From NCBI RefSeq assembly GCF_021057185.1, contig NZ_CP054059.1:1050001-1082000 (forward strand): DNA of 32,000 bases, given 5' to 3'. The notes below the pieces were generated by a model. That model had not been told where the DNA came from and made no database searches. It saw only the letters and a list, made by a program, of their open reading frames with translations. The stretch is from Candidatus Absconditicoccus praedator. GTDB taxonomy: Bacteria > Patescibacteriota > Gracilibacteria > Absconditabacterales > Absconditicoccaceae. Both the position numbers and the translations under genes were made by a program. Below are positions 1 through 32,000 of this stretch, piece by piece; position 1 is the stretch's first letter, and each line of letters begins with the position of its first letter.

Positions 1-2
1 AA

Positions 3-2594
3 AAGATGAAACATTCTATTACTCTTAATAGATTTTTGTTTCATATTTCTATGTTTATAAATCCAAAGATACTAAATGACTACAAAAGAAATCTTAATGA
101 ATTATTTTATATAATATCAAACGATGAAACTGTGTATAACCTTTTTATGAAGCAGTCAAAAATATTACTTAATATATTAAATGAAGAAGTTGGTGATAAT
201 GAAACTCTTTTTAATAGATCTCAATTTCCAGATAGAAAAAATATGATTTTTTTAGAATGATTATATTATTGAATCCTAAACATTAAAGAAGCTTTAGAAT
301 ATGTTTTTTATATCAAAAGCACAGATAAGGCTTATTGTGAATACTATGAGCAACACAAAGATAATAAGCTAATTACAAATATAATAAATGAAATAGATTC
401 TTTTTTAGAAGAAAATGAAGTTAGCTTGGATAAAGATAGTAATGAATATTATGAGCTTATTTTGCATTTTTATATGCTTAGAATACCAAATAAAAGCACA
501 TCATCTAAATATAAACATATAATACTTAAAAATCTTCAAAAAAAAATTGGTATAAGTTGAATTAATCAAAATTTTTCAGGGCAAAATGTAGGCAGTAAAT
601 TTCAGAAAAACTTGTACAAAACTTGAAGCAAGATATGAAATAAACAAAGAAGAGATACAAATATTACTAACTTTTTAAATGATTTGAAAATTTTAGGAAG
701 AAAACAACAATATTATAAAAAACTATCTCAAAATCTAAAACAAAATGATTGTGATGGTCTTTTGATTGAGGAGTTTTTGGATATATTTTTTGATTCATTA
801 TTTGAAAGCAATGTTGATCTGGATTTTGTGGGTGTTCTTTATATGGCTTTTAAAGAGAAAAAAATATCCAATGATGATAATATCAGGATAAGCTCTATAT
901 ATAAAAAATATAAACAGTGAAAAATAGAAAACACTTATGATCTTCAAAACTTTTTAGGTTTTCTTTTGTTAGCAAGTAAAAATCCTGAACTTCAGTCTTT
1001 TTCAGAAGAAAACAGGGACTACTTGTTTTCTGAGTACAGTGCTGAATTTATTGAGGAAAATGTTAACTTTTTCTTGAAGTTCAAAGACAATGTATGTTTA
1101 ATAACTCAAATATTATGAGCTGATTTTGTACAAAAAAATATTGAAAATATTCAGTGATTTAAAAATATTTCTTCTTTGTTAAAAAAAGTAGATATAGATT
1201 TAATTGGAAATAAAAATTTGTATTATTTATTGTATGTAATTTTTTGGGAAGAACAAAACCAAGTTAGCAAATATGTTGAAGAATTTAGAGAATACAAACA
1301 AAATTTAATAAGACTTAAATCACAGGAAGATTTATTTTTACAGGAGACACAAAATCCTATAGATATTGGTTTTTGGGAGTTTTTGCAAACTGATCTTGAT
1401 TATGAAAACTTACTTAATCTTGAATTTGCTATACAAGAACTAGTAGAACTAAACAATAAAATTAAAAATTTTTTATCAGATAAGCAATTTTCTAATGAAA
1501 TAACTCATAGAAGAAAAATATATGATATATCAGTAGAAAGGCTTATTTATTATGTATATTTTTGTGAAAATTTTGACTGCAGTGAAATAAGTGAAAGAAC
1601 TCTTCAAAATATATTTTTATTGCAGGAAGATAAATATCATACAGTTGTAAATAATATATTAAGTTTGGCAAACAATACAGCATTAAAAAAGCTAAATCAT
1701 CTAAGTAAAAATGAAATTTTATATATTTTTTATCATAATTTTGCAGATATATATCATTTATTAGATAATGACTTTGAAAATATACAAGATATCCTAAGTT
1801 GATTAAATAAAACTAGCTTTGTGGAAAAATATCAAAAAGAAATAGAAGAAATATTAGATTCTACAAATATAGATGTTACATTAATTTTTGAATATTTTGA
1901 AAATCTAGAAGAGGAAATAGATTGGTTAGAGAGGCTATTAAAATTGTTTAAGTTCTTAAAGAAAAATAATTTATTGCCAATAATAGAAAGTAGTTTTCCA
2001 GGTTGAATTGAAGGATTTGTACAACAAGTTCTTGATAATGTAAATTCACCTGAGCAACTATCATATCTAAATTCAAATAATTATGATTTAATATTTATTT
2101 CAAACTATCTAGATATAGAATTTTTACTCCAAACAGTATATAGTTCAGCAAATTTATTAATTTTATTAAACAGATTTCAGTCATCACAACTAGATCAATT
2201 AATAGAAAAGTTTAGTGCTGAACAAATAGATCAAACAAGTGTTCACAAGAATATAAAAGAATTCTCTGAAATTTTGATAGATTTTCTTTTGGGGAAAACA
2301 AAAATCCAAGAAATTGAAAAATACAAAACACCAAGCTCTAAAGAAAATCAAACTAAGAGACCAAAAACAAATATATTAAGTTATTGGTCCCCCCAAATGG
2401 GTTCAAGAGAGGTTGAAGCTTTATTGAAGAGATTTGGATTTCTAAAAGATAGACAATGATCCACAAGTCACAGAATATTTAGACATCCAGGCGGAAAATG
2501 AGCTATTGTTGTTCCAATGGGTAAAGATTCATTACCTGTGGGAACATTGAGAAATATACTTAAAACTGCTGCTTTAATTTTGGAAGAAGGTTAG
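3..2594 (+). CDS. Large (>=863 aa) mostly helical hypothetical protein with a C-terminal HicA-like toxin domain. The frame is open to the window edge, so the 5' end may lie upstream (first ATG at 6).
   Basis: Standard-code fragments 6-260, 684-920, 1176-1802, 1821-2006 and 2274-2459 share one frame and are joined only by TGA codons. There is no TAA/TAG until TAG 2592-2594. I saw no Walker or other NTPase motif in the N-terminal ~790 aa. Confidence 0.75.
2397..2594 (+). other. HicA-like (YcfA/HicA_toxin family) domain at the C-terminus of the large protein
   Basis: MGSREVEALLKRFGFLKDRQ-G-STSHRIFRHPGGKGAIVVPMGKDSLPVGTLRNILKTAAL matches the HicA pattern (GF..rq.GSH..f.HP......vP.h...l..GTl..Ilk.agl). 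The conserved Gly before the catalytic His is written as TGA (2457-2459). Confidence 0.7.
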
Positions 2595-2660
2595 TTTTCT
2601 GAAAAAAGATTTCTCTAAAACCTATAAAATTAAATTATTAATTATTGGTTTTTTCTAAAT

Positions 2661-2689
2661 TTGACAAATGAGCTTGATTTAGATATTAT
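2661..2689 (+). promoter_or_regulatory. Sigma70-type promoter candidate for the pilT operon
   Basis: TTGACA (2661-2666), a 17-nt spacer, then TATTAT (2684-2689), 33 nt upstream of the pilT ATG. Confidence 0.5.
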
Positions 2690-2722
2690 TAATATATTGA
2701 TTTAAATAAAAATAAAAAATTT

Positions 2723-3826
2723 ATGCCTTCAAATAGTATTTATTGAAAACTTGAACAAATATTGGTTAATAACATATCTGATATACATATTTTAGAAGAT
2801 GATTTTATTTATGTTAGAAACTCTTCTTGAAAAATAAAAAAATTAGATTGATACATTTTATATCAAGAAGAGATTTACTGATTTTTACATGATATATTGC
2901 CCACAAATAGTGTCGATTTGCTATTAGATGGACATGAAGTTGATGCTTCTCATACTTTTTCTTGAAGTAGATTTAGAATCAATGCATACAAAGATAACAA
3001 TTGAATTAGAATTGCTTTAAGAAAAATATCCTCTATGCCTCCTAGTATGGAAGAGATTTGATTTTCTACTGAATTTAAGAATCAATTAATTAACAAGGAA
3101 AAGTGATTGATTTTAGTTACTTGACCAACTTGATCTTGAAAATCAACAACATTAGCATCAATTATAGAAGCAATTAATAATGAACTTAACTCTCATATAA
3201 TTACTTTAGAAGATCCAATAGAATTTTTATATGAAAGTAAGAATTCTTTGATAACACAAAGAGAAATATGAAAAGATACAAAATCTTGGAAGTGAGCGAT
3301 AAAATACAGTTTGAGACAAGATCCAGATGTGGTTTTAGTTTGAGAAATGAGAGATCTTGATACAATATCTTCTGTAATGACCTTAGTAGAAACATGACAT
3401 TTAGTTTTGTCATCTTTGCATACAACTGATGCTATTCAAACAATTAATCGTATAGTTGATTCTTTTCCTGCTAATCAGCAGCAACAAGTAGCAGCTCAAT
3501 TAAGTTTCTCTTTGGATACTATTATTAGCCAAAGACTTTTTACAAATAAAACTAATAATTGAAGAGTTCCAGTAAGGGAGGTATTAATAAATAATAATGC
3601 TGTAGCAAATAATATTAGAGAAAGAAAGTTAGCACAATTAATATGAATCATGGAAACTTCTACTAAATATTGAATGAGAACTATGGATCAGTCTCTTGCA
3701 GAAGCTGTAGCTAGTGGACAAATAGACTTAAATGTTGCATTATCAAAAGTTAAAAATATAGATAATTTTAAATCTTTAGTTTCATACCATAAAAATGGAA
3801 GTTCAAAATTTAGGCCAATTGATTAA
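2723..3826 (+). CDS. pilT: Type IV pilus retraction ATPase PilT
   Basis: The frame is continuous from ATG 2723 to TAA 3824-3826 with TGA=Gly (about 18 in-frame TGA by hand count). Walker A GPTGSGKST is written TGA-CCA-ACT-TGA-TCT-TGA-AAA-TCA-ACA at 3122-3148. It also has LRQDPDVVLVGEMRD and GHLVLSSLHT motifs. Length 367 aa. Confidence 0.92.
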
Positions 3827-4571
3827 GAAATACTGACAAAAAAAGTTTTTAGAATCTTGAAAGATGTTATTTGATTGCTCAAAGGAAGATTGTAATATTT
3901 ACTATATTCAATCTTGACATGTTTTACTTGAGAAAAACTCAATTCCAGTAGTTTCTCTTTGAAGTTGAGAAATTTTATGAGAAAAAAGCTTTTTAGAATT
4001 AGTTCCCAAACTTTTAGATGCAAAAGTTTCTGAAGATTTAGAATATTATTTTTTAACTAAGGAAAAATTTGATCAACTGAATGAAGATGCTAAGGTGTCT
4101 ATTTTATCTTGAATTTGATCTTTTTTAACTAATAGAATTTATAAATTAAATGATGTTCTAACAAAGATTAATTATTATAACAGTAATATTATACTGTCTG
4201 ATATTGATGATGAAAAATTAAAAAATATATTTAAAAATGATATAACAATAGAAGAGATACTTGTTTTAAAAAAAATAAATTGAAATGAAAATTTTCATAA
4301 ACTTTATTGAAATATAGTGTTTTGAGATGATGTTGAAAAACTTTTGTATACTATCTCAAGTCAAGATAATAAAATTAAAGTTTGAAAAAATTATCTAATA
4401 TTTGATTCATGAAGTTATGTTTTCTTATTTTTTGGTAAGATTATAAGTGAGAAGTATATTCTAGAAAATTCTATATTATATAGTACATGAATGTTTGATT
4501 ATTTATGATTTAAATTAGAGGAAAAACAAAATAATGAATTTTTAGAAAGTTCAGATAGTTTTGATGAATAA
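3795..4571 (+). CDS. Cyclic-nucleotide-binding (Crp-like beta-roll) domain protein
   Basis: Runs from the first ATG after TAG 3777-3779 to TAA 4569-4571 and overlaps the pilT 3' end by 32 nt. The N-terminal FLESGKMLFDCSKEDCNIYYIQSGHVLLEKNSIPVVSLGSGEILGEKSFL resembles the cNMP-binding fold signature. Length 258 aa. Confidence 0.6.
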
Positions 4572-6373: not shown

Positions 6374-6386
6374 ATTAAATTAAAAT

Positions 6387-7616
6387 TTAAACTTTTTCTA
6401 TATCTACTCAAATTTTTTTGAGCTTTTTATCAATATCTTCATATCATCTAAGTATAATATTTTCATTTGTGATATAACTGGTTCATTTTGCTAGTATTCA
6501 TGCAAGTAACATTGCTCATCATCATCTTAAGTCAGTACTACTTAGATAATCTCAATGTAACTTGGTTTTTCAAATAATTATTACTTGATGTGGATTTAGT
6601 ATTTCAATATTTGCTCATACATTTTCAAGTTCTGCAAGATAGGCAAATCTTCATTCAAATATAGTTTCATGAATTTTGCTTATTCATTTTATTTGAGTTA
6701 AAACCACTCAAAAAATTGATTGTAGATCTGTAGGAAATCAGGGATATATTTGAGTTTGCAAGCTAATAGGCTTATATTTGTTTTTATTTTTAGAATTAAC
6801 AATTATTGTGTTATTATTTACTATTTTGTAATTAATTCATATTTTATCTGCTGTTGCTAACACAGCAGTTAGATCTTTGATATTGAATCAAGTGATTTTT
6901 ATTTCCGAGTCATCAGTTATAGCTCATATTGCAAAAAAAGTTCATGCTTCAATATAGTCTCCAATTATTTTAAATTCATCTTTTTTTATTTTTGTCCTTG
7001 TTGGAGTTATCAAAATGCTATGATCATAATTTATTTTTATTTTTGCTCAAATTGTCTTGAGAAATTCAATTAAGTTTATTACATGAGGTTCAATTGCAAC
7101 TTGTTCAATTTTTATTGTGTAATCAATATCCTTTAAAAAACTCAAATATGTAAGGATGCTTTCTGTTGTTGTAACGCTAAATTCTTTTAGAATAATTCTT
7201 TTTTGAGGTTTTCATGTTTTTTTGTATTCTTTTTTTCAGTTTTGAAGTTTAATTGATATTCCTGCTTGTAAAAAGGCATCATCAAATGTGTCAAGAGACC
7301 TTTTTCATATTTTGCAGCCTCATGGTTGTGAAAAAATAACTTTTCAAAATTTTATAAGTCAATTTGGTATTAATAGTATACTAGATCTTATTTGATTTAC
7401 TTTTTGTCATTTTAGATCATAAAATTTTTTAGATTTTTTTTCTGCAGAAGTAGCAATTTCTTCAAGTATTTGTAAATCTTTAATTCTTGGCTTGTTTACA
7501 AGTTCTATGGAATTGTTTATTATTTGATTTGCGGCAACAATTGGAAGTGCTGCATTTTTGCTTCAAGATATTCTAACTGTTCAATTTAATTTTTTTGAAT
7601 TTTTTATTTTAAACAT
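6387..7616 (-). CDS. murA: UDP-N-acetylglucosamine 1-carboxyvinyltransferase MurA
   Basis: 409 aa from ATG (complement of 7614-7616) to TAA (complement of 6387-6389). Motifs are GTVRISGSKNAALPIVAA, IYPGFPTDLQ and TDLRGGGAMLLAGILAKG, with many Gly written as TGA. Confidence 0.93.
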
Positions 7617-7674: not shown

Positions 7675-7718
7675 TGAAATATATATAAATACAAATTAAA
7701 ATTATATTACAAATAAAT

Positions 7719-7746
7719 TTGACAAAAAAAATATATTGTGTATAAT
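7719..7746 (+). promoter_or_regulatory. Consensus sigma70 promoter
   Basis: Perfect TTGACA (7719-7724), a 16-nt spacer, then perfect TATAAT (7741-7746), 31 nt upstream of ATG 7778. Confidence 0.6.
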
Positions 7747-7777
7747 TTTATAAAATTTAACAAATAAAAACAAAAAA

Positions 7778-8101
7778 ATGAATATAAATAAGTTAGTAGC
7801 AGATCAAGAAATTCAAGAAATTACTGCAAATCCAGATTCTTTTGCTCCTGATGTAACTTGAGATCTAGCAGAGGAGCTTTCTGAACTTGGTGTAGATATA
7901 GTTATCAATCATAAAACTTGTGTAGTATGAAGAGATACAACTTGAGATTGAACATATATTATATCAGACAACTGAATGGTAAAAGATACAGTATTTTGGG
8001 TATGAGAAATCGAAACTTTTTGATATGGAAGAGTTTGATTTGAGTATGAAACTGTAAATGGAGAAAGTTGAACCTGGATAGTTTGAGAAGGTCCTTTATA
8101 A
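7778..8101 (+). CDS. Small hypothetical protein (107 aa), Gly-rich
   Basis: Runs from ATG 7778 to TAA 8099-8101. It contains 10 in-frame TGA against 4 GGN codons by hand count, and it sits behind a consensus promoter. I recognised no family. Confidence 0.6.
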
Positions 8102-8536
8102 TGAGATATTTTTGAGTTTGTCTTTAAGAAAGTTTTCTAATTCTGGATCTATATCTTCTTTTTTATATATTGTTTCTTTGATTTGATTTATTTTTTGATT
8201 GTTTGGTGTTATTAATTTTATAACATCTTCTATGTTTTTATATTCTCCTTTGATTTGCATTGTTTCGAAAAAATTAACTGTGTTTTTGATGAATTCTTTT
8301 CAATCAGAATGTAAAAGTTTTTTTCTGTAAAATTCTAACATTTCTTTTCTTATTATCTTAAGTTTTTTCTTTTCATTTATATTTTTTTTGATTTGTATTA
8401 ATATCTTAAAAAGAAAGAAAATGCTACTTATCAAGGAAAAAAATATTAAAAATAACAATATTATAAGCAACATATTGTTTAATATTGCATATATTCAAAT
8501 TTCAGGCCATTGATTGAAGTATATATTTTCTATCAT
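8096..8536 (-). CDS. Small membrane protein (one or two TM segments plus a charged helical tail), partner of the vWA protein
   Basis: Starts at ATG (complement of 8534-8536), 1 nt after the upstream stop, and ends at TAA (complement of 8096-8098). Length 146 aa, with the TM region LLIILLFLIFFSLISSIFFLF. Confidence 0.6.
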
Positions 8537-9403: not shown

Positions 9404-12400
9404 ATGTCTATATTTCCTAAAAAATATGATCCATCAATTGAAGAACAAATAAATAAAATGTGGATAGAAAATAATTTGTTTGCCCCTGACAATCAAGGGA
9501 AAAAACAAGATACAGAAAAATTTGTAATTTCAATGCCTCCTCCGAATGTTACCTGAATACTTCATCTTGGTCATGCTTTTATGCTATCCATAGAAGATGC
9601 ATTTGTAAGACATGCTCGTATGAGATGAAAAGAAACTCTACGAATCCCATGAACAGACCATGCATGAATAGCAACTCAGGCAGTAGTAGAAAAGAAACTA
9701 AAAGAAGAATGAATTTCTAGATATGATTTATGAAGAGAAAAGTTTGTTGATAAAGTTTGGGATTGGGCTAAGTACTCTAGGAGTACAATAATAAACCAAA
9801 CAAAACAAATGTGAGCGTCTTGTGACTGGAATAGAGAAGAGTTTACTATGTCTGAAAGACTTTCTAGAGCAGTAAGAAAAGCTTTTGTTAATCTATATCA
9901 GAGTTGAAAAATTTATCAATGAGATTATATTGTTAATTGGTGTCCAGAATCTCAGACAGTAATTTCAGATATAGAAGTAAATTATGAAGAAGAAGAAACA
10001 AACTTGTATCATATTAGATATTTTATAGAATGAAAATGAGATTCAATTACAATAGCCACAGTTCGTCCTGAAACAATTTTTGCAGATGTTGCAATTGCTG
10101 TTCATCCAAAAGACAAAAGATACAAAAAGTTTATATGAAAAAATGTACTTATTCCAATAGTAAATAGGCCAATACCTGTAATAGCAGATGAATATGTAGA
10201 CACTACTTTTGGATCTTGAGCATTGAAAATAACTCCTACTCATGATCCAAATGATTTTAATATATGAAAAAATCATGATTTACCTTTGGATAGATTTGCA
10301 ATAGATAAGGATTGATGTTTTACAAGTTGGGCAGGGGAGTTTGAATGACACAAAGCTAAAGATGTGATGGGAAACCTAACTCAAATGCTTGATGAGATTT
10401 GAAATTTAGAAAAAATAGAAAAATATACAACAAAGGTGCCTTATTCTGAAAGATATAATACAAGAATTCAACCTATGTTGAGTAAACAGTGGTTTGTAGA
10501 CACAAAAGATTCTGCTCAGGCTTCTATAGATCTAGTTAATGATTGAGAAGTAAATATATGTCCTGAAAGGTTTAATAAAAATTTCTTCAATTGGCTTAAT
10601 GATATTAAGCCTTGGTGTATAAGTAGACAGCTTTGGTGGTGACATAGAATTCCTGTTTGGTATTGTGAAAACTGACATAAAAATGTTTATGATGAAGATT
10701 CAGTTATATCTTCAATCAAGCAAAATGAAAAAACATCTAAATACACTATACTGTCTATGATAATATTTAACTTGATTTCAGATTTAAAGCTAAAAAAGCA
10801 TTTTAATATAGAAGAGTTGATTAATGTTTTGTTTGATGACAGTATTCTTCCTCATCAGTGAAAAATTTATAGAACATACATTGATATTTATAAAACAAAA
10901 TATAAAAATGATTCCAAGTTACTAAATGAGGTTGAAGAATTAGAAGATGTCTTAGATTTCATGTCTTCCAAAGAAAATGATATATTAAGTAAGTGAGATA
11001 AATTAGTTGATATTCTTTGAGAGTCATATTGAATTCAGGAAAAATGAGATTTTTATGAGTTTATTTTTTATTGTCAATCTTGTGATTCTCAAAAACTAAA
11101 ACAAGATGAAGATGTATTAGATACTTGGTTTAGTTCATCTCTTTGGCCTTTTAGTATTTTGTGATGGCCAGAAAAAACTACTGATTTTGAAAGGTATTAT
11201 CCAAATCAGGTTATGTGAACTTGATATGATATACTTTTTTTCCGAGTAGCAAGGATGGTTATGATGTGATGGGAAAACTTAGGTCAAAAACCATTTGATA
11301 ATGTTTATTTGCATTGATTGGTAAAAGATAAAAACTGAGAAAAATTTTCGAAATCAAAATGAAATAACATTGATCCTGCAGAAGTAATTAAAACTTATTG
11401 AGCTGATAGTATGAGACTGTCTTTGGTTTTGTGAACAACTCCTGGTAATGATACAAAATTTTCTATGGAAAAAGTTGAGTACAACAAAAGATTTATAAAT
11501 AAACTATGGAATGCCACTAGGTTTATCCATGTAAATTATATTTGAGACAATGCATCAACTATTGATTATGATCTTATAAGAGAGGATATAAATAAAAATT
11601 TTGAGCACTTAAATGATTTTGATAAATGGATTGTAAATCAGATTAATGAATTAGTTGTTTTGTGAGAAAAGTCTTTCAAAAATTTTATGTTATGAGAATT
11701 TTGACAAAATATAGTTAAGGTAGCCTGGCATGATTTCTGTGATTGGTATATAGAGATATCCAAAATAAGTTCTTCAGAGTATACCCAAAAAGTTTTGCTG
11801 TATTGAATCTGAACAATACTTAAGCTTTTGCATCCTTATGCTCCTTTTGTGACAGAAAAATTGTGGAGTCTTTTGTGATTTGAGTGATTTTTGATAGTTT
11901 CAGATTATCCTCAAACAATTGAAGTTTGAGAAAAAAACTCTAAAATAAACTTATTGATGGATTTGATTTCAGAATGAAGAAATCTTAGACATCAATCCGA
12001 ATTAAAACCACATGAAAAAGTTGATATTTGTGTTCAATCAAACTCAAGATTTTTAGAGTTTTTAAAGCAGTATGAAAATATATTTACTTCTCTTATTTGA
12101 GTAAATAATATTAGTTACTTATCAGAAAATGAACAAATTCCAGAAGAATATCATGTAGGTGTTGTTTTTGATGTAAAACTTGGGCTGAAATGAATAAAAC
12201 AAATAAGTGTTGCTGAGCAAATAGAAAACCTTGAAAAGCAAAAATCACAAGAAGAGCAGTTTTTGCAATCATTGAGAAGTGTAGTTACAAGCCCATGATT
12301 CATGGAAAAAGCTCCAGAAAAAGTGGTGGAAGAAAAAACTCAAAAAATAGAAGAAGTAAAAAATAGGATTTTGGATATACAATATGAAATAGATAAGCTT

Positions 12401-12415
12401 AAAATGAAAAAATAA
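9404..12415 (+). CDS. valS: Valine--tRNA ligase
   Basis: 1003 aa from ATG 9404 to TAA 12413-12415. The HIGH region is PPPNVTGILHLGHA, KMSKS appears as KFSKSKGN (about 11345-11368), and [17 protein letters not shown] is present. It carries an extra ~125 aa between WYCENGH and CQSC. Confidence 0.93.
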
Positions 12416-13591: not shown

Positions 13592-14801
13592 ATGGATTAC
13601 AAAGTTTTTTGATGTAGATTAAATAAATATTATGCAAATCAATGGTTAAACTATTTTTATGAACAAAATATTTACGATAGAAATTATTTTTTGTTGGTTT
13701 CATGTCAGGTTACTGATAAAGCAAAAACAAAATGGATAAAAGAAGCTAAATCACAAATTAAAAAATGAAAAATAGTATATTTAGCATGATGTGGTAGTAT
13801 CGATAAATGAAATATAATTGATGAAAAAAAACTGTTAGATCAGTTTCCAGAATTAAAAGATTATTTTTACAATATTAGGCTTTTGCCTGAGTCTCCTAAA
13901 TGAAATTTTGATACTATTAAATGATATGAAAAAAGTATATATACTAGGAAAAATATACTTATACAAAATGGTTGTGATACCAACTGTACTTTTTGTATAA
14001 CAGCAAAAAAAGATGAAAAAGTAGAAATAGAAATAAAAAAGAGATAATAGATGAAATAAATGAATTTCATAAATACTGATGAAAAGAGGTGGTATTAACT
14101 TGAGTAAATGTTTCTGCATGGTGAGCTTCCAATACAAGAAATTCAAAAGAAAGTAAATTTTCACATCTTCTAAGAGATATCTTGAATTATACAAATATTC
14201 CAAGAATTAGAATATCATCTATTTCTCCAGAATTTCTCGATGATTATTTTTTTGATGTGATAGAAAATAAAAGAATAATGCCTTTTTTTCATTTTTCTGT
14301 ACAAAGTTTTTCAGATAAGGTTTTAAAAAATATGAATAGAAATTATACATCTTGTGAATTGATAGAAAAAATTGAAACAATTAGAAGTTTAAAAAGAGAT
14401 GATAAAGATTTAATCAATCTTGGTGCAGATATAATTGTGTGATTTCCTCAAGAAACTTATGAAGATTTTTTGATAACATATAATATGCTTGAAAAATATT
14501 TTTTTACGAATATGCATATATTTCCATTTTCTTCTCATATAAAATGAGATTCAGTTCCTGCTTCATTGTATAAAGGTAAAATTGATGATTCAATAAAAAA
14601 TCAAAGAGAAAAAAAACTTTTTAATCTTTCTGAAATTAATCAAAAAAAATTCAAGAAAATAAATAAATGAAAAAAATTAAATGTTCTTTTTGAATATCAA
14701 AAAAAATGAACTTGGTACTGATGGTCTGAAAATTATATTCAAATAAAAAAACTTCTCATGATGATTTGTCAGGAAAATTGCAAGAGGTTGTTTTTAAATA
14801 A
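13592..14801 (+). CDS. MiaB/MtaB-family radical-SAM methylthiotransferase, interrupted by two apparent -1 frameshifts
   Basis: The N-terminal MTTase domain (FGCRLNKYY...LVSCQVT...YLAGCGS) and the radical-SAM motif GCDTNCTFC lie in frame 2 (13592-14011). The conserved continuation RGKSRNR...VVLTGVNV...RISSISPEF lies in frame 1 (14011-14751). The TRAM-like tail TSHDDLSGKLQEVVFK lies in frame 0 and ends at TAA 14799-14801. Confidence 0.75.
14005..14011 (+). other. A7 tract at the first -1 frameshift site in the methylthiotransferase gene
   Basis: GC-AAAAAAA-GATGA. Frame 2 stops at TAA 14045-14047. Frame 1 is closed upstream by TAG 13945-13947. One extra A would give ...CITAKKRGKSRN... in a single frame. 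Confidence 0.8.
14745..14751 (+). other. A7 tract at the second apparent -1 frameshift site in the same gene
   Basis: AT-AAAAAAA-CTTCTCATG. The shifted reading gives a TRAM-like end. The unshifted reading gives ...KKLLMMICQENCKRLFLNNYYFLQFV and stops at TAA 14824-14826. Confidence 0.55.
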
Positions 14802-14811
14802 TTATTATTTT

Positions 14812-14839
14812 TTGCAATTTGTTTAAATTTGGTTAAAAT
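14812..14839 (+). promoter_or_regulatory. Sigma70-type promoter candidate
   Basis: TTGCAA (14812-14817), a 16-nt spacer, then TAAAAT (14834-14839), upstream of ATG 14874. Confidence 0.4.
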
Positions 14840-16943: not shown

Positions 16944-18218
16944 ATGAGGCTAAGTAATTATTTTGTAAAAACTTCAAAACAATCTTCAGAAGAAGAAAAG
17001 TCTATAAATGCTCAATTGCTTACAAGGTGATGATTTGTTAGAAGAAATATAGCATGAGTTTATACATATCTACCTTTCTGATTAAGAGTTTTGAGAAAGA
17101 TAGAAAATATTGTTAGGGAAGAGATGAATAAGATTTGATGAAATGAAGTTTTTATGCCTGTATTGTCGTCCAAAGCTAACTGGGAGGCCACATGAAGATG
17201 GGATGAAATAGATGTTTTATACAAACTTGAATGAGCTTGATGACATATGTTTGCTTTGAATTCCACCCATGAAGAGATTATTACTCCTATAGCAGAAGAA
17301 TTTATAAAATCTTATAAAGATTTACCAAGATATATCTATCAGATACAAACAAAATTTAGAAATGAAAAAAGAGCTAAATCTTGACTTTTGAGGTGAAGAG
17401 AGTTCTCTATGAAAGATTTGTATAGTTTTCATGAAAATGAAAAAGATTTAGATGAATATTTTGAGCTTGTGTCAAAAGCATATAGAAAAATTTTTGATAG
17501 AGTATGACTTGGCAAATTAACTTATGAAGTAGAAGCACCTTGATGAGATTTTTCCGACAAACCTTCTATAGAATTCCAAACATTAACTAATGCATGAGAA
17601 GATAATATTTGGATAGATACAAAAACTAATTATGCAATCAATGAAGAATTAGCTGAATGTATGACAGATATTTTTGATATAGTAAAAGAATGAGAAAATA
17701 TTTCATCAATATACTCTAAAAAAATTTGAAGAGAGCTTGAAAAAAGAAAAGCTGCAGAAGTATGAAATATATTTAAATTGTATGATAGATTTTCAAAAGC
17801 ATTTAATCTTTTTTATCAAGACAAAACTAATTCTCAGGAATTAGTACAAATGTGATGTTATTGAATATGAACTTCTCGTTTAATGTGAGTAGTTGTGGAG
17901 GTGTTTAATGATGAAAAATGAATTATTTGGCCAGAAAATATTGCTCCTTATAAATATGATATAATTCCAATATGAGAGACATGATATAAAAAAGCTGAAG
18001 AAATATATAATTACTTTGAAAAATGTTGAATAGAAGCTGTTTTAGATGATAGAAAAGAATCTCCATGATATAGGCTAAAAGATGCTGATTTGGTGGGTTT
18101 TCCATATAAAATAGTAGTTTCAGACAAAACATTATCTTCTTGAGAAAATATTGTAGAAGTTATAAATAGGCAAACTGGTAGTACTGAATTAATTGATTAT
18201 ACAAAAATTAAAAAATAG
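16944..18218 (+). CDS. proS: Proline--tRNA ligase (short form without a full INS editing domain)
   Basis: 424 aa from ATG 16944 to TAG 18216-18218. Motifs are [45 protein letters not shown] and MGCYGIGTSRLMGVVVE. Confidence 0.9.
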
Positions 18219-18434
18219 CCGAAATGGTGAATTCCATTCCGGCTTTGAGATTCAAGAAAAAAGGCTTTTGATAGTAGGAACAATATCATTTTCATTTCCT
18301 ACTTTGGCTACTTTTCTATCTCCAAACAGTCCTTGTTTTTCATAGATTCCAAATCCACCAATTTCCTTTTGGATTTTGAATCTCCTAGTTTGTCCATCAG
18401 GACATTTAAAGGCAAATTTGCTTGGCATTTCCAT
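18189..18434 (-). CDS. Small hypothetical protein: 60 aa to the TGA codon, 81 aa if TGA=Gly
   Basis: Starts at ATG (complement of 18432-18434), preceded by AAGGAG 8 nt upstream and a near-consensus promoter. The standard-code end is TGA 18252-18254. Table-25 reading adds [21 protein letters not shown] up to TAA (complement of 18189-18191), crossing the hairpin and 30 nt of proS. Confidence 0.6.
18217..18244. terminator. Hairpin between convergent genes (bidirectional terminator candidate)
   Basis: AGCCGAAATGG (18217-18227), loop TGAATT, then CCATTCCGGCT (18234-18244). This is an 11-bp stem with one A-C mismatch and only a short T-run follows. Confidence 0.5.
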
Positions 18435-18442
18435 AAGTTGTA

Positions 18443-18495
18443 CTCCTTTTGTATGGATGGTATATTCTTTATAATTATTTGCGCAAAAATGTCAA
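18443..18495 (-). promoter_or_regulatory. Near-consensus promoter plus Shine-Dalgarno of the small minus-strand gene
   Basis: On the minus strand: TTGACA (complement of 18490-18495), a 16-nt spacer, TATAAA (complement of 18468-18473), then AAGGAG (complement of 18443-18448) 8 nt before the ATG. Confidence 0.6.
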
Positions 18496-18599
18496 TAAAT
18501 TGTGTTTGATTTTTTGTGATAAATATTAAATACTTAAAATTGAATTTTCAAGAAATATTCTTAAACTATAAAATATATTTTAGAAATTTATTTTAAAAA

Positions 18600-19502
18600 A
18601 TGGGATTTGAAACAAAATATATACGAGAAAACTGAAAAAAATTGCAATGGGATGACTCAAAAATACATACAGTAAATCATGCTTTACATTATTGAACAGC
18701 AGTGTTTGAATGAATTAGAATTTATCAAACAGAAAAATGACCAAAAATATTTAGGCTTACAGACCATATGAAAAGATTTGTTCATAGTATGCAATGTATC
18801 AATATAAATACAGATTTTTCTATAAACGATTTAAATGAAGCAACAAAAGAACTTATTAAAATAAACTGAATAGAAAATTGATATATAAGACCAATTGCAT
18901 GGTATTGATCAGGTAAAATGTGATTAAACCCTGCTTGAGCTGAGCAAAACATTAGTATATCAGTACGAAGTTGGTGAAAATACCTATCAGAAAATCCTAT
19001 AAATGTATGTATTTCCAGCTATATAAGACCACATCCTCAGTCTGCAATTATGACCGCAAAAATAAGTTGATATTATATAAATAGTGTTTTTGCTAATACC
19101 GAAGCAAAAGCCAATTGATATGATGAGGCTTTGCTTTTAGATAATGAATGAAATGTTGCTGAATGACCTGGTGAAAATATTTTTTTTATAAAAGATAAGT
19201 ATTTATATACACCAAATTCTAAGTCAATTCTTCCTTGAATAACTAGGGATACAATAACAAATGCAGTAGCAAAAGATTTATGATATATAGTTGAAGAGAC
19301 TTCAATTTCTCCAAATAAAATACAAAACTTTGATGAGGCTTTTTTTGTATGAACTGCTGCAGAAGTAACTCCTATTCAAAAAATACAAGAAACAAACTGA
19401 AATATTATTTCTTATAGTGCTGATAAATCTTATGAAATAGCAGATTATTATCAAAAAATTGTAACATGACAAATAGATAAATACAAGTACTGGAATGAAT
19501 AA
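18600..19502 (+). CDS. ilvE: Branched-chain amino acid aminotransferase (fold type IV)
   Basis: 300 aa from ATG 18600 to TAA 19500-19502. Motifs are HALHYGTAVFEGIR, YIRPIAWYGSG, EGPGENIFF, LPGITRD and FFVGTAAEVTPI. Confidence 0.88.
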
Positions 19503-19970: not shown

Positions 19971-21335
19971 TTATTCTAGATATCCGCTTTCTTCTTCTGC
20001 TTTGTCATAAAATTTCATAACATTATCTACAAAAACAAGTTCTACATCTCAAACTGGTCAATTTCTATTTTTCCTCAAAAAAACATCTGCAAGTCACTTC
20101 CTGTCTGTATCAGGATCATAATAATCTTCTCTAAATAACATCAAAACTGCATCCGCATCTTGTTCTATAGCTCAAGACTCTCTAAGATCAGAAAGTTGAG
20201 GTTTCTTATCTGGTCTTTGTTCTACTGCACGAGAAAGTTGAGATAAAGCTAAAATAGGAACCTCAAGTTCTCTTGCTAATTCTTTAAGTCATCTAGATAT
20301 TTCTGAAATTTCTTGTACTCTATTTCCAGCAAACTTTGAAGATGCTCAGCTCATTAATTGAAGGTAATCTATTAATATCAAGTCCAGCCCTCCTTTTTCT
20401 ATTTTTAGTCTTCTTAGTTTTGATTTTAGTTCGGGAATGGTAGCTCATCATTTATCATCAAGAAAAATGTTTACCTCAGATAATTTTTCCATTGCTTCTC
20501 ATATATTTGCAAAATCTTCTTCGTGAAGATCTCATCTGTGAATTTTTCCTAAAGGTGTCTCAGATACACAAGATAGTATTCTATCAACAATTTGGTCATT
20601 TCACATTTCCAAGGAAAACATTGCAACATACTTGTTTTGCTTTATAGCAGCATTTATAAGTAGATTTATAGCAAATGATGTTTTTCACATACTTGGTCTT
20701 GCAGCCAAAATCACCAAATCACCTGGCTTAAATCCTCCCAATAAGTTATCCAAGTGAGAATAAGTTGATAAAACTTTTCATTTGTCTACCTTTGATGGAT
20801 CATCAACAATTTCCATATATTCTTCCATTCTTTGATTGAGTATATCTTTTATGTGAGCCAAAGAACTACTTGTATTTATCTGAGTCAAGTCAAATATTCT
20901 TTTTTCTATATTATCAAGTATTTGTCAAGTATCTTTTTCTTCATATACATCTCATGCTATTTTTTGGGATGTTTTTAATATATTTCTTAATATGGATTTT
21001 TCTTTAACAATCTTAGAATACTCTCATACTACAGTAGGAGTTAATACGAAACTTGATAATTCGTAAAGATAGTCAATACCTCATATATTTTCAAGATTTC
21101 AATTTTTTGAAAGTTGGTCAGAAATAGTAATAACATCAATAGTTTTATTGGACTCCCATAACTGAGAAATTGCTTCATAAATAAACTGATGTTCTTTTTG
21201 ATAAAAATCTTCAGCATTTATAAAATATGATGTTGCTGAGTACAAAGAATCATTATCAAGTATTATGCTTGATATAACTCATTTTTCGGCTTCCTGAGAG
21301 TTAGGAGGCAATTTGATGTCTTGAATATCTACCAT
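19971..21335 (-). CDS. dnaB: Replicative DNA helicase DnaB
   Basis: 454 aa. It has [18 protein letters not shown], Walker [22 protein letters not shown] (the G of MGKT is TGA, complement of 20685-20687), DYLQLM and [32 protein letters not shown]. Confidence 0.93.
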
Positions 21336-22024: not shown

Positions 22025-22675
22025 TTAGTATTCTTTTATTCAAAAAAGCTTTTCAAAAATATATTTTTGTAATATTATCAATGGATCAAAAACTCGTTTT
22101 TTAAAGAATCAATAAATTTTTGGTCTTATTAAAATCAAAGGACATAAAATTCATAAAAAGAAACCAGCTATTATATCAGTAGGTCGATGTATTCATCACA
22201 TCACCCTAGATATTCACATAATAAAAGAGAAAATAAATAAAACAAAAGAGAAAGCCAATAAAAATCTATTTTTATTTTGTAATCCCCATAGCATAGAAGA
22301 GGTTGCAATAGCCATGCTTAGAGTCATATGATCTGATGGAATACTTACATCTGGTAGGTGTTCTAATACTAGGTTTTTTTGGGATTCTATATGATCTTCA
22401 GGTCTATCTTTAATAATTAGAAACTGAAAAGCTTGACTTACTATCATACTGGTAACTCAAGAAAAAAATATATATAATGAAGCATATTTATAATTTACAT
22501 TTTTATTGTAAACTCCATACAAATACAAATATACTAAATATATTGGATAAACAAACACAAAAATATCTGCTGTTATAGGAATGTACTTAGATAAAAAATA
22601 GTTTTTATCTGCAAAATCATTTAAGTTTTCAAGAAGTAATTTTCACCATTCAGGTTCTTTTAGTTTTAAGAACAT
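22025..22675 (-). CDS. PAP2-family phosphatase (BcrC-like undecaprenyl-diphosphatase candidate)
   Basis: 216 aa. All three PAP2 motifs are present: KDRPEDH, PSDH and SRVMGGIHRPTD. It has multiple TM segments. Confidence 0.8.
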
Positions 22676-23714: not shown

Positions 23715-24470
23715 ATGCGAAAAAAGATAGGGTATTTTTTGGTTCATGTCTTAAATATTACGATAATTGTAACAACTTTCATTCTTGCTTTTATCACAAT
23801 ATTTTATCCAGAAGTAATTAAAAATATAATAGAATGGATAGAAGAAGTAGTTAAATGACTTTGAAACTGGAATTATTTGATAGCATTTTTGAGTGCAGCT
23901 ATAGAAAGTTTTCCTTTGGTTTGAATGTTGTTGCCTTGACAGACCGTGTTACTTACAGTTTGAGGTTTTTTTGGTCAGGAATTTTTAATAAATGTAATGG
24001 TAGTAGCAGCGTTATGAGCTGTATTGGGTAATTATACCTGATATATTCTTGGTTATTATGTAGGTGATGCATTTTTTAAAAGGTATTGAGAATGGTTTTG
24101 AATTTGAGAAACAGAGCTTGATTATATAAAATCTTGAATACATAAATATTGACCAATAGCAGTTATTCTTAGTAAATTTCACCCTATGACAAGAGCTTTT
24201 ATTCCATTTATAGCTTGAAGTATGTGAATGAAGCAATTCTCTTTTATGATATATAATTTTATAGGTTCTATTTTGTGGGCTGTTACAGTGGTTGTATTAT
24301 GAGTTTTATTTGTTTCTTATTATGAAGTGATAATTGATTCATTTCCTTTGATTGTTCTTGTATTGTTAATATGATGAGCATTTTATATATACTTTTTTAA
24401 GAAAGAAAAATTTCAAGAGTATATGAAGAAAAAACAAGAAGAAATAGAAAGAAAGTATTGAAATAAATAA
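23715..24470 (+). CDS. DedA-family (SNARE-associated/VTT domain) membrane protein
   Basis: 251 aa. Motifs are LIAFLSAAIESFPLVGMLLPGQTVLLTVGGF, NYTGYILGYYVG, FHPMTRAFIPFIAGSMGM. Confidence 0.8.
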
Positions 24471-25196: not shown

Positions 25197-25201
25197 TCTA
25201 T

Positions 25202-25233: not shown

Positions 25234-25234
25234 A

Positions 25235-25262
25235 TTGAAAGTTATGTAAAATTATTTATAAT
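25235..25262 (+). promoter_or_regulatory. Sigma70-type promoter candidate for the transglutaminase-like gene
   Basis: TTGAAA (25235-25240), a 16-nt spacer, then TATAAT (25257-25262), 30 nt upstream of ATG 25293. Confidence 0.5.
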
Positions 25263-25292
25263 AAACAATATTTAAACAAAACAAAAATTAAT

Positions 25293-26819: not shown

Positions 26820-26877
26820 CTTAAAATATTTATCATAAATTCTAATTTGTGTATGATTTATTTTGTATAATAAATTA

Positions 26878-27687: not shown

Positions 27688-27707
27688 AATTTATATGAGT
27701 AAATTTG

Positions 27708-28439
27708 ATGATGAATTATCCAAAGCATGTTTGATTAATCCCTGATTGAAATAGGACTTGGGCGAAAACTCAAAATATACCAAAATTTTGGTGACATCTT
27801 GAGTGATTTAATAGATGTATTGAACTTTGTAATCATATCTTTACTAATACTGATATAAAAGTATTTAGTATATGGGGACTTAGTACAGAAAATCGAAAAT
27901 GAAGAACAAATGAAGAGTTGGATTACCTTTTTGGTTTGTATAAAAAAGTACCTATTAATTTGGAAAAGTTTTTAAAAGAAAAAAAAGTCAACTTTAGATT
28001 TGTATGAAACTTGGATGGTATACCAAAAGATTTGGCAGACTTTTTAAAGGATAAACAAAAAGAATTAACTTTTGATACTGATAAATATCTTGTGTTGGCT
28101 ATAAATTATTGATGAAGAGATGAGGTTGTTAGAGGTATTAAAAATATGGCTTCCAATATGATACAACAATGAAAATACAATTTGAATGATATTCAAGACG
28201 ATATTACTGAAGAAAATTTATCAAAACATCTTGATTTTTGAGACTTGCCGAATATAGAATTAGTTATCAGAACAAAATGAAATTTAGCAAAAAGACTTTC
28301 AGGATTTATGCTGTGGTGGGTGTGATATGCAGAATTGTATTTTTCAGAAAAAAAATGTCCAGAATTTAATTCTAAAGATTTGGATGAAGCTTTGTCTTGG
28401 TTCAATAATGTTTATAAAGAGAGAAACTTTTGAAAATAA
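27708..28439 (+). CDS. uppS: Isoprenyl transferase / undecaprenyl-diphosphate synthase
   Basis: 243 aa. Motifs are HVGLIPDGNRTWAK, STENRKGRTNEEL, INYGGRDEVV, ELVIRTKGNLAKRLSGFMLWWVGYAELYF and ERNFG. ATG 27695 in another frame is a decoy that stops after 20 codons. Confidence 0.88.
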
Positions 28440-28461
28440 TTTATAAATTTACTAAAAAATA

Positions 28462-29607
28462 ATGATAGCAACTATACCTACATCAAAATTACAAGAAATA
28501 TTGGATAATTGTACAAGATTTGTTTCAAAAAGCTCTACACTGCCTGTGCTAGAAAATATATATATAAAGGCTGAATCCGATAAAGTTGTTTTTAAGTCAA
28601 CTGATATGGAAAAATATATACAATTTGAAATAAATACTCAAGTGGAAGCTCAGTGATGACTTACTGTAAATGCAAAAGTTTTTTCTGATATTATTAGAAG
28701 TTTGGATGATGATGAGGTTAAACTAGAAATAGATGAAAATACTGATATGTTAACAATAAACACAACAAGTGATGTTTTTAAAGTAAAATGAATTTCTATA
28801 TCTGAATATGTAGCTGCACCTTCTGTTTCCTCTGATGTAGCTGCTTCTATCAAGCCATCTGAGCTGTCAAAATGAATTGATAAAGTTGCTTATGCTGTTA
28901 CTGAAAGAAATTTTTCACCTGTATTGACTGGAGTGTTGCTTAAAATGAAACAAGAATCAGATTGAAATAAGTTAGTTTTTGTTTGAACAGATTCATTAAG
29001 GTTGGCAGAATACAAAATTCCTTATGAGGGAGAGTTTTGTGAGATGGAGCTTGTAATACCTAAAATAAATATCATAGATATAAAAAAAATGATAGATTAT
29101 GTAGAAGAAAAATGATGAACAAAAATTGATGTGTCATTTTCAGAAAATATGGTTAGCTTTGTAGCAGATTTAGAAGACTCAAAAATATATACAACTTCTG
29201 TATTAATTCAATGAAACTTTCCAAATTATGATAATGAAAGCATAATCCCTAGACAGTATAATACAGAAATAAATACTGATAAAATGCAACTAGAAAAATC
29301 TATTAAAAAAGTTTCAATTCTTACTAAAGATGTGAATAATTTTGTAAATATAAGTAACTTGGATGAGAAAAAAATAGTTGTGAGATCTTGAGAAACTGAT
29401 AAGTGAGAAGCAGATACCAATATTAATGCTAGCATAGACTGAAGTGACTTTAAGATTGGTATAAATTGAAAATATATTTCTGATTTTATAAAAGTAATTG
29501 AATCTGATAATATTTTGATTAATATTGTAGATAATGAAAAACCAGTAGTATTTAAGGATGAGTTGGATGAAAATCTTGTGTATGTGATTAGACCTTTGGT
29601 GGATTAA
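28462..29607 (+). CDS. dnaN: DNA polymerase III beta sliding clamp
   Basis: 381 aa. Motifs are LQEILDNCTRFVSKSSTLPVLENIYIKAE, FKSTDME, ERNFSPVLTGVLLK, GTDSLRLAEYK and the C-terminal VIRPL. Confidence 0.9.
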
Positions 29608-29627
29608 TTTTAAATAAAATAAAAAAA

Positions 29628-30317
29628 ATGAAGAATTCTTTTACATTATTTGAAATAATTGTAGTTGTTATTATATTATGATTACTTTTAGCAGCATTAA
29701 GTAATTTTTTTCAAATGAATGAAAGAGATTATATAAGAGCAAGATGATGTGTAGATCATACATACTGACAGATAAAAAACTTTATTGATATGGCTTCTAC
29801 CTGAAAATGACTTTATGATGAATCAGTAGGAGAGGTTGTGTATCCAGATGAATATGAGTTAGTTTTTAATGAGGATGACAATTATATAAGTTTTAGGTAT
29901 ATTAAAGATTGAACTTCTAGTGATTATAAAAAAATTGAGCTTGAGTGATCTGATTGAACATGAGAAAATTATTGTTATGATAATTCAAGAGAATATTATG
30001 TAAGTATATGAGAGTATGATTGAGCTAGTGATGATGAAGGCCTTATAGAAGAAATCAACTTATCAACGTTGTTTCAGTGAGATATAAATACACCGCCTGT
30101 TAAAATAAATAATGATGAACAAAAATCTTATTGATATATATCTTTTTATTTTTCTCCTGCAGATGTTGAGGATAGAAGAATAATAAGCAAAATTATTTTT
30201 GATAGGAGAGTTAATCAAGTAAGACATAATAAATGTACACAACGGTGAGAAAATTATTCTACTTGTCAAAGATGGGCTCAAACATTCAATGAAATGGATT
30301 GAATTTTCAATTATTAG
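29628..30317 (+). CDS. Type IV pilin-like / pseudopilin protein (prepilin-type N-terminal motif)
   Basis: 229 aa. MKNS-FTLFEIIVVVIILGLLLAAL is a class III signal with Glu at +5. The C-terminal Cys pair KCTQRGENYSTC resembles a pilin D-region disulfide loop. It ends at TAG 30315-30317. Confidence 0.75.
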
Positions 30318-30357
30318 TAATGATAACCAAAAGTAATCACATTAGAAAAATTACTAT

Positions 30358-30385
30358 TTGACTTTGTTTTTGATTTTGTTATAAA
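30358..30385 (+). promoter_or_regulatory. Sigma70-type promoter candidate for ftsA-ftsZ
   Basis: TTGACT (30358-30363), a 16-nt spacer, then TATAAA (30380-30385), 42 nt upstream of ATG 30428. Confidence 0.45.
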
Positions 30386-30427
30386 GAGTTTATTGAAAAA
30401 ATTTATTTGAATTAAATGTTTTTTTAA

Positions 30428-31609
30428 ATGCAGGATTTAAAGTTGGTTTTAGATTTATGAAACTGATATATAAAAGGTATCATATTTGCAAAAGAGTGAG
30501 ATAGTACAGTGGTTATATCTAAAGATACAGTTAAAACTAAGTGAATGAGAAAATGAAAAATATTGGATGTTGATGATTTTGTGTATTCAATTAGAGCTTT
30601 GTTTGAAAGTTTTGAAAAAAAACTTTGAGGTGACTTTATAGATGAAATATATGTGGGGTTGTCTCATCCAGATATGAAAATCAAAAGAATTTCAGAACAA
30701 AAAAGAGTAATGAATGAGTCAATACAACAAGATGATATGGATCATCTTACAAATCTAATTTCAGAAACTTCCGGTGAACAAAATTATGAAACCATCAAAA
30801 TCATTCCTGTACAGTGGATTATAGATGAACAAATGAGGCTAAAAGACCCTACATGAATGCAGTGAAAAAAGCTTGAAATTACTGCAGATGTTTTTTCTAT
30901 ACCAAAGAATTTTTATAATACATTAGTAGAAGTTTTTGAAAAACTTGAAATAGATGTAGTGGATATTGTTCCAAACTTACTTGGTGCATCGGAATCAGCT
31001 ATAGATTTTGATGATAAGGATCTTTGAACATTGTTGATAGATATATGAAATAATCAAACTTCTTTTGTGGTTTATGAGGAGTGATTTCCTATAACTTATT
31101 GAGTTGTACCTATTTGATGAGAGGAAGTAACCAAAGATATTTCAATTTGACTTCAGGTAGATATAAAAGATGCAGAAAAAATAAAAAAAGAAAAATGAAC
31201 TGCATTATTGGAGGATCAGTCTCAAGAAGACGAATCAATTGATGTGGCATTTTTGTCTGATGTTATTACCGCAAGGTATGAAGAAATTTTTGAACATATA
31301 AATGAGTATCTTGTACAGCTAGGGAAAGATAGTAGGCTTCCATGATGAGTAGTACTAGTAGGATGATGAGCAAAGATGAATAATGTTGAAAAGCTATCAA
31401 AAGAATATTTTAAGCTTGTTACCTTTTTTGGAAAGGATAAAGTTTATAATATATCTGATGTATCAACCAAATTGCAGTATATAAATACAATATGAGTAAA
31501 TGCATGGGTTGACAAGTATTGAGTATGAAGTGGATGATTTAGTATGTCTATGTGAGTTTGATTATGATGGGTGAAAAAAGTAATAAAATATATTAAAGAT
31601 ATGTTCTAA
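30428..31609 (+). CDS. ftsA: Cell division protein FtsA
   Basis: 393 aa. Actin-fold motifs are LVLDLGNGYIKGIIF, LLIDIGNNQTSFVVY and GGVVLVGGGAKM. The C-terminal amphipathic helix is WVKKVIKYIKDMF. Confidence 0.9.
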
Positions 31610-31653
31610 AATTAATCTTATTTTGAAAATTTATATACTAAAATAATAAGAAA

Positions 31654-32000
31654 ATGACATTACAAGAAATAACTCCAGATTTTGTACCATGAGCTAGAAT
31701 AAAAGTAGTTTGAGTATGATGAGGTGGTTCTAATAGTTTGAATAGAATGATTCAAGAATGAATAGAATGAGTTGAATTTATATGAGTAAATACTGATGCT
31801 CAAGCATTATCAGGTTCTTTTGCAGAGCATAAAGTTAATATATGACTAAATCTTACAAGATGACTTTGAGCTTGAGCTAATGCTGATGTTTGAAGAAAGG
31901 CTGCAGAAGAAAATATTGATGAAATAAAAAAACTTCTTCAAGATACAGATATGCTATTTGTGACTGCAGGTATGTGATGAGGTACAGGTACTTGAGCAAC
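31654..32000 (+). CDS. ftsZ: Cell division GTPase FtsZ (3' end beyond the window)
   Basis: GVGGGGSN is written TGA-GTA-TGA-TGA-GGT-GGT-TCT-AAT at 31711-31734. NTDAQAL is present. The tubulin signature GMGGGTGTGA is written GGT-ATG-TGA-TGA-GGT-ACA-GGT-ACT-TGA-GCA at 31969-31998. Confidence 0.95.

Follow-up and report, generated by a model that had tools for sequence, protein, structure and literature searches.

UGA as glycine and CGA as probable tryptophan in a 32-kb stretch of the Candidatus Absconditicoccus praedator chromosome

The reading of UGA as glycine in Absconditabacteria and Gracilibacteria is treated as established (PMC8629427). It is listed as code 25, the Candidate Division SR1 and Gracilibacteria code (Campbell et al. 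2013 and Rinke et al. 2013, as quoted in PMC8629427), and its proteomic validation in BD1-5 is credited to Hanke et al. 2014 (PMC4032931, as quoted in PMC6851277). For Absconditabacteria, a second deviation was predicted with Codetta, namely that CGA and CGG stand for tryptophan, and consistent tRNAs were reported (Shulgina and Eddy 2021, PMC8629427); it is described in the same paper as experimentally unconfirmed, and was later restated for Absconditabacterales (PMC13092985). Here, we analyzed a stretch of 32,000 nucleotides (hereafter the window; positions 1,050,001 to 1,082,000 of contig NZ_CP054059.1) from the chromosome of Candidatus Absconditicoccus praedator; the guanine-cytosine (GC) content of the window is 25.6%. 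The window is almost certainly an ordinary housekeeping stretch from a member of the Absconditabacteria/SR1, within the Candidate Phyla Radiation (CPR), with a deviant code in which UGA is glycine, CGA is tryptophan and CGG is probably tryptophan.

With code 25, the window shares the meaning of UGA, the restriction of stop codons to UAA and UAG, a low GC content and the Absconditabacteria lineage; no difference exists at UGA, but the table keeps CGA and CGG as arginine, which does not fit the window. The Codetta-predicted Absconditabacteria code is matched in that CGA stands on conserved tryptophan columns, CGA and CGG both occur very seldom, AGA dominates among the arginine codons, and the GC content (0.26) lies between the reported limits of 0.26 and 0.38 (PMC8629427). 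Code 4, used by Mycoplasmatales, Entomoplasmatales, Hodgkinia, Nasuia, Zinderia and Stammera, is similar in that UGA was captured in AT-rich reduced genomes, with loss of release factor 2 (RF2) as the proposed route, and differs in the amino acid, which is tryptophan there and glycine in the window. To our knowledge, no NCBI translation table implements UGA as glycine plus CGA and CGG as tryptophan.

UGA as a glycine codon

Read with the standard code, the stop-to-stop stretches in the six reading frames of the window reach 214 codons at most, and frames of at least 100 amino acids total only 3.7 kb. When TGA was taken as sense, frames extended to 1004 codons, while taking TAG as sense brought no gain (longest frame 214 codons) and taking TAA as sense gave frames of at most 259 codons. 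In 100 shuffled versions of the window, the longest frame free of TAA and TAG had a mean of 127 and a maximum of 199 codons, as compared with the 1004 observed. The gene map obtained with TGA as sense contains 34 open reading frame (ORF) segments, corresponding to 33 genes when a frameshifted methyltransferase is counted once, and 93.6% of the window is coding. This agrees with the initial annotation of the window, made from the letters alone, which had considered the short standard-code ORFs an artefact of recoding and had described 34 full-length, tightly packed genes. The 33 gene ends inside the window are, as claimed there, all TAA (29) or TAG (4) and never TGA. In-frame TGA was found in every gene, 472 times in total (4.7% of codons), which amounts to 79% of the glycine codons when set against 128 GGN codons.

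In order to avoid circularity, in-frame TGA codons (and later also CGA and CGG) were masked as X before the proteins were compared with 13 Escherichia coli K-12 orthologues (valS, murA, proS, rpoD, ilvE, dnaB, sodA, ahpC, ispU, dnaN, ftsA, ftsZ, and yggR). Tabulating TGA against homologue columns had been suggested by the initial annotation, and the outcome favours its claim of a recoded window: E. coli has glycine at 142 of the 246 aligned TGA sites (58%, against a background of 7.3%; P = 5e-94), followed by alanine (26) and serine (14). The ordinary glycine codons GGT and GGA face E. coli glycine at 19 of 30 (63%) and 11 of 20 sites (55%), respectively, TGG faces tryptophan at 38 of 50, CGT faces arginine at 5 of 5, and AGA faces arginine at 72 of 119. 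A likelihood decoding in the style of Codetta favoured glycine for TGA by a factor of 10^94.7 over the next candidate, serine, and, apart from TGA and CGA, returned the standard meaning for the codons with adequate data; GTG (isoleucine or valine, posterior 0.63) and TCC (proline or serine, 0.75) were flagged by this procedure and discarded as noise from small counts. The same picture emerged from a wider set of sequences for valyl-tRNA synthetase (ValRS), where the columns of its 47 TGA codons are 61% glycine in 56 standard-code ValRS (background 5.8%). Glycine makes up 1.3% of all residues without TGA and 5.9% with TGA as glycine. Furthermore, the C-termini of the window proteins and of their E. 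coli orthologues coincide to within 0 to 38 amino acids, and the aligned C-terminal regions themselves contain TGA codons, which means that TGA does not act as a terminator.

The genes that carry the motifs and codons discussed here are the following (coordinates within the window; aa, amino acid position):

2723-3826, plus strand: PilT-like type IV pilus ATPase; T2SSE match of 151.5 bits with TGA as glycine versus 111.2 bits with TGA as tryptophan
6387-7616, minus strand: MurA; 28 in-frame TGA; Pfam match of 178.6 bits (glycine) versus 105.2 bits (tryptophan)
9404-12415, plus strand: ValRS; 47 TGA; CGA at 9641-9643 (aa80) and 11243-11245 (aa614)
18600-19502, plus strand: branched-chain aminotransferase (BCAT, IlvE); CGA at 18624-18626 (aa9) and 18966-18968 (aa123)
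19971-21335, minus strand: DnaB helicase; Walker A S-M-G-K-T, the glycine being TGA (complement of 20685-20687)
22025-22675, minus strand: PAP2 phosphatase; CGA at 22184-22186 (aa164) and 22094-22096
23715-24470, plus strand: DedA/VTT-domain membrane protein; CGA at codon 2 (23718-23720)
27708-28439, plus strand: UppS; CGA at 27894-27896 (aa63); NYGGR, both glycines being TGA
29628-30317, plus strand: pilin-like protein; sole CGG of the window at 30243-30245 (aa206)
31654-32000, plus strand: N-terminus of FtsZ, cut at the window end (full gene 392 aa); GVGGGGSN and GMGGGTGTGA mix TGA and GGT

Some of the most conserved glycines of these proteins are encoded by TGA. The Walker A motif of PilT (GPTGSGKST, 3122-3148) reads TGA CCA ACT TGA TCT TGA AAA TCA ACA, with TGA at all three glycines, and the two FtsZ motifs read TGA GTA TGA TGA GGT GGT TCT AAT (31711-31734) and GGT ATG TGA TGA GGT ACA GGT ACT TGA GCA (31969-31998). 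Both glycines of PGTDHAGI in ValRS (9647-9669) are likewise TGA. For PilT, FtsZ, and DnaB, the positions at which the initial annotation had placed glycine-coding TGA proved exact, and the motifs it had quoted for four other proteins can be seen in the masked translations as LR-XXX-AMLLAX (MurA), RHX (a phosphatase), NYXXR (UppS), and XSTSH (a HicA-domain protein). Its statement that conserved tryptophan is still TGG holds for the most part, as in XWAWL of SOD and LDTWFSS of ValRS, both visible in the masked translations with their tryptophans spelled TGG, but fails at four conserved tryptophan positions occupied by CGA. In the window, UGA specifies glycine instead of a stop and is the main codon for this amino acid, and UAA and UAG are the sole terminators.

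The readable portion of the genome comprises positions 5268-61287 of the Logan assembly contig SRR15691272_91 (56 kb of 1.13 Mb), whose positions 25464-57463 are identical to the window. This contig also carries, approximately 20 kb upstream of the window and adjoining dnaA, the gene for release factor 1 (RF1, prfA; locus L124, 4315-5388, minus strand). The assignment was made with NCBIfam: the prfA model scores of 466 and 453 bits exceed the respective cut-offs, whereas prfB, at 275 bits, stays below its cut-off of 370, and the P-x-T motif (PET) is present. As the catalytic GGQ of this factor is spelled TGA-TGA-CAA, no functional RF1 would be possible if UGA terminated translation. No second release factor was found in the readable 56 kb, and prfB is reported to be absent from the Gracilibacteria (BD1-5) genomes that were available to the authors of PMC6851277.

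CGA and CGG at tryptophan positions

Arginine-type codons are unevenly used in the final gene map (AGA 228, AGG 48, CGT 6, CGC 0, CGA 8, and CGG 1), with CGA and CGG occurring 8.0 and 1.0 times per 10,000 codons. Five of the eight CGA codons could be aligned with E. coli orthologues, where they face tryptophan four times, phenylalanine once and arginine never; at a background of 1.3% tryptophan, the binomial P is 1.6e-7, and the likelihood decoding gave tryptophan a posterior of 0.99997, a factor of 10^9 over arginine. The four tryptophan-facing sites are aa80 (TL-W-xPGTDHAG) and aa614 (DIxFF-W-xARM) of ValRS, aa9 of IlvE (YI-W-xNG), and aa63 of UppS (SxEN-W). Both ValRS columns hold tryptophan in E. 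coli and in 56 of 56 standard-code ValRS. Outside this set, the CGA at aa164 of the PAP2 phosphatase falls where the GxH-[F/Y/W]-PxD motif has its aromatic residue, which is phenylalanine in LpxE (6ebu), and the CGA codons at 22094-22096 of the same gene and at codon 2 of the DedA/VTT-domain protein are without an assignable homologous position. No homologue was available for the pilin-like protein that holds the CGG of the window. The genes flanking the window in the 56-kb view add seven CGA and two CGG codons; a CGG at codon 21 of DnaA (locus L124, 2798-4285, minus strand) aligns with the conserved N-terminal Trp6 of E. coli DnaA in a global alignment in which domain I is weakly conserved, and is the sole indication on CGG from this organism. 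A single protein of 498 aa and unknown function holds four of the seven flanking CGA codons.

The usage of these codons was further compared across the clade. A 23-base pattern corresponding to P-G-T-D-H-A-G-I of ValRS, in which TGA spelled the two glycines, was run against the GTDB representative genomes and returned 30 matches, 27 of them in true ValRS genes from genomes with 21-36% GC and labelled as Absconditabacteria, Gracilibacteria, Vampirococcus lugosii, Altimarinus or loosely named metagenome-assembled genomes. The other three (L095 and L097, labelled Sericytochromatia, and L118, Geobacteraceae) were rejected as chance matches, with 47-55% GC and ORFs of 81-234 nt; the local sequences of L095 and L097 are identical to each other. 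ValRS sequences from the window and from 21 loci (22 recoded DNAs) were then compared with the 56 standard-code ValRS at 21 tryptophan-conserved and 22 arginine-conserved columns. CGA and CGG occur 23 times at tryptophan columns (CGA 19, CGG 4) and 0 times at arginine columns, as opposed to CGT and CGC, which occur 0 times at tryptophan and 35 times at arginine columns (Fisher P = 1.1e-16). At these tryptophan columns, the relatives switch only between TGG and CGA/CGG, and among the sampled ValRS loci CGA at tryptophan columns is confined to those that look of the Absconditabacteria type, V. lugosii included. A search for recoded ValRS relatives in metagenome contigs, using a query back-translated with GGN for glycine and TGG for tryptophan, retrieved 80 loci, all from standard-code bacteria (40-69% GC) and none with a tRNA with a UCA anticodon; the gain in ORF length with TGA as sense is uninformative as an indicator of recoding on such GC-rich DNA.

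As judged by these alignments, CGA marks positions at which homologues carry tryptophan, and in no case positions at which they carry arginine. In addition to the features of code 25, A. praedator thus very likely reads CGA, and probably CGG, as tryptophan, and the code of the window would be table 25 plus CGA as tryptophan, with CGG probably the same. CGG is probably included on the strength of the suggestive dnaA site and of consistent relatives, the single site in the window being unassignable.

Several points weigh against this reading. The evidence from CGA in the window comes down to five alignable sites out of eight, one of which (aa123 of IlvE, 18966-18968) faces phenylalanine in E. 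coli, and the other three CGA codons are uninformative, as is the CGG; the CGG site in dnaA depends on the weak alignment of domain I. Ambiguous decoding, with a mixture of tryptophan and arginine at CGA, would also be compatible with the sequence comparison. On the side of the decoding apparatus, no tRNA gene of any kind was found in the window or in the 56-kb view, and the absence of RF2 holds only for these 56 kb, or 5% of the genome. The 30 loci that matched the recoded ValRS pattern did not contain tRNA genes either.

Some of the same points would speak for plain table 25 as the complete code, with CGA as arginine and the exchanges of tryptophan for arginine being genuine substitutions in a fast-evolving CPR lineage: CGA is rare in the window, one aligned CGA faces phenylalanine and three are unassignable, and NCBI translates the genome in this way. 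However, this would need four independent, near-invariant tryptophans in three enzymes to have become arginine, all through one rare codon, while arginine is faced by most AGA and all aligned CGT codons and by no CGA. Together with the 23 to 0 distribution of CGA and CGG over the tryptophan and arginine columns of the 22 genomes, this renders plain table 25 very improbable. Table 25, as proposed in the initial annotation, is therefore right for UGA and incomplete, as CGA behaves as tryptophan at four of five aligned sites, and the retranslation recommended there restores the glycines but would still get at least 4 to 5 of the window's residues wrong.

Seven products of the window, including MurA, ValRS, BCAT, and UppS, are exact NCBI A. 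praedator proteins, with the lineage given as Absconditabacteria (SR1), which is in line with the assignment of the code to SR1 and Gracilibacteria in the initial annotation. The deposited MurA is identical at 381 of 381 unmasked residues and has glycine at 28 of 28 TGA positions, and the table-25 translations of ValRS (UFX83471.1/WP_231177920.1), BCAT (UFX83480.1/WP_231177949.1), and UppS (WP_231177995.1) are exactly the GenBank/RefSeq proteins of one replicon of 1,129,696 bp. The reading of UGA as glycine in A. praedator is hence already known, the GenBank/RefSeq record using code 25. At the tryptophan-like CGA sites, the NCBI proteins carry arginine. No published mention of CGA or CGG as tryptophan for A. 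praedator itself was found in a search that did not cover the original species description.

Published work on the clade allows a mechanism to be proposed in which UGA would be decoded by a dedicated tRNA-Gly(UCA), RF2 would have been lost with RF1 left to read UAA and UAG, and CGA and CGG would be decoded by tRNA(UCG) and tRNA(CCG) with tryptophan identity elements. The tRNA-Gly with anticodon UCA, known from the clade, would be expected to have G1:C72, C2:G71, G3:C70, and U73, and the tryptophan identity elements expected of tRNA(UCG) and tRNA(CCG) are G73 and the lack of A20 (PMC8629427). Strong AT mutation pressure, as suggested by the GC content of the window, may first have depleted the codons, after which TGA, once captured, would have displaced GGN.

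Alternative readings of UGA

The interruption of genes by TGA could also be explained without glycine. In favour of UGA as tryptophan, as in genetic code 4 of Mycoplasmatales and some insect endosymbionts, which are likewise very AT-rich, is the low GC content of the window; the automatic gene caller of Logan translated the same contig in this way, and the ACD80 relatives carry the NCBI label 'gcode 4'. However, only 1 of the 246 aligned TGA codons faces tryptophan, and the likelihood decoding placed glycine 10^192 above it. In addition, 10 of 10 proteins lose Pfam bits when TGA is translated as tryptophan instead of glycine (for instance, ValRS falls from 448 to 342 and FtsA from 71.6 to 31.2), tryptophan would rise to 5.5% of residues, and the Walker A and GGQ motifs would be destroyed. 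Code 4 is consequently ruled out by the alignments. The Logan gene calls on SRR15691272_91 have tryptophan at 47 of 47 ValRS TGA codons, which bears out the warning of the initial annotation against annotating this contig without regard to its code, although the code itself was already known at UGA.

Nonsense mutations or sequencing errors, in degraded or non-coding DNA or in a poor assembly, would account for the fact that the standard code leaves no frame longer than 214 codons open, and one gene does have a real frameshift at a run of seven A. Such processes would not be expected to interrupt genes with a single one of the three stop triplets, 58% of the time on glycine columns, nor to leave products of full length that end where their orthologues end. 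Moreover, the NCBI complete genome and the Logan assembly contain the same sequence, and TGA at glycine in the ValRS motif is common to 27 other genomes of the clade, and we regard degradation or error as having a negligible chance of being correct. Lastly, selenocysteine, for which UGA is the codon in standard bacteria, or an occasional programmed readthrough with the stop meaning kept can be dismissed as practically inconceivable, as the 472 in-frame TGA (4.7% of codons) are spread over every gene, 1 of 246 faces cysteine, no gene ends in TGA, and UGA spells essential catalytic glycines (in Walker A, in the FtsZ G-box and in the GGQ of RF1).

Neighbouring loci and implications

A few frames of the gene map were decided upon inspection. 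The antisense ORF 31638-32000 (minus strand) was judged spurious, and a doubtful 47-aa ORF of the first gene map (g19) was replaced. A mechanical choice of the longest ORF favoured an antisense frame of 144 codons (7702-8136, minus strand), which was judged spurious as well; the probable real gene at this place is an ORF of 107 aa on the plus strand (7778-8101) with 10 in-frame TGA, for which no Pfam family was found and on which the Logan gene calls agree. A search of the whole window against Rfam at gathering thresholds returned no match.

The frameshifted gene (13592-14826, plus strand) encodes a MiaB/MtaB/RimO-type methylthiotransferase (UPF0004 plus Radical_SAM), in which a -1 shift of the frame leaves two ORFs that overlap (13592-14047 and 13993-14826). 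The shift lies exactly at the run of seven A at 14004-14010 (GCA AAA AAA G, containing the slippery heptamer A_AAA_AAA), directly after the CxxxCxxC cluster motif. The 411-aa product of a conceptual fusion gave Pfam matches to both domains, of 84 and 26 bits, and the frameshift is present identically in the Logan assembly. The split could stem from decay into a pseudogene or from an error in the homopolymer, or else from slippage during transcription or of the ribosome.

At the beginning of the window (1-2594, plus strand; full gene at 399-3191 of locus L012), the last ~60 residues of a 930-aa protein contain a HicA_toxin domain (55 bits), fused to ~870 residues without a recognisable domain. 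The protein is an orphan whose sole match among 5.8 billion proteins is itself, under the NCBI name 'HicA family toxin', and no HicB-like gene was recognised next to it. Its glycine codons are atypical, with 12 TGA versus 20 GGN, compared with a TGA share of ~79% in the genome overall.

Between proS and the BCAT gene, a spacer of 381 nt (18219-18599) contains no called gene, has a GC content of 30-35%, above that of its flanks, and shows a folding energy z of -3.3 relative to shuffled sequences. An Rfam search of this spacer (18.2-18.6 kb) gave only noise, and a minus-strand frame of 114 codons (18189-18533) is rich in GGN-coded glycine and had no Pfam match. The spacer could represent a leader RNA or what is left of a gene, or be of no significance.

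For work on this organism, the choice of translation table matters at both codons. Tools that use table 11 or table 4 fail on A. praedator DNA, which in the Logan ValRS alone amounts to 47 wrong tryptophans. Table 25 alone would leave conserved tryptophans as arginine in the essential ValRS, IlvE, and UppS, and such errors would already have been propagated in RefSeq and UniRef. What the analysis adds is the evidence that CGA, and probably CGG, as tryptophan applies to A. praedator, in which case its public proteins would be wrong at these positions. If true, this would be a bacterial sense-codon reassignment of a kind that was, until now, only computationally predicted for the clade. A. praedator is reported to grow in co-culture with its prey, and it may therefore offer a system in which the translation of CGA and CGG as tryptophan could be checked directly by experiment.

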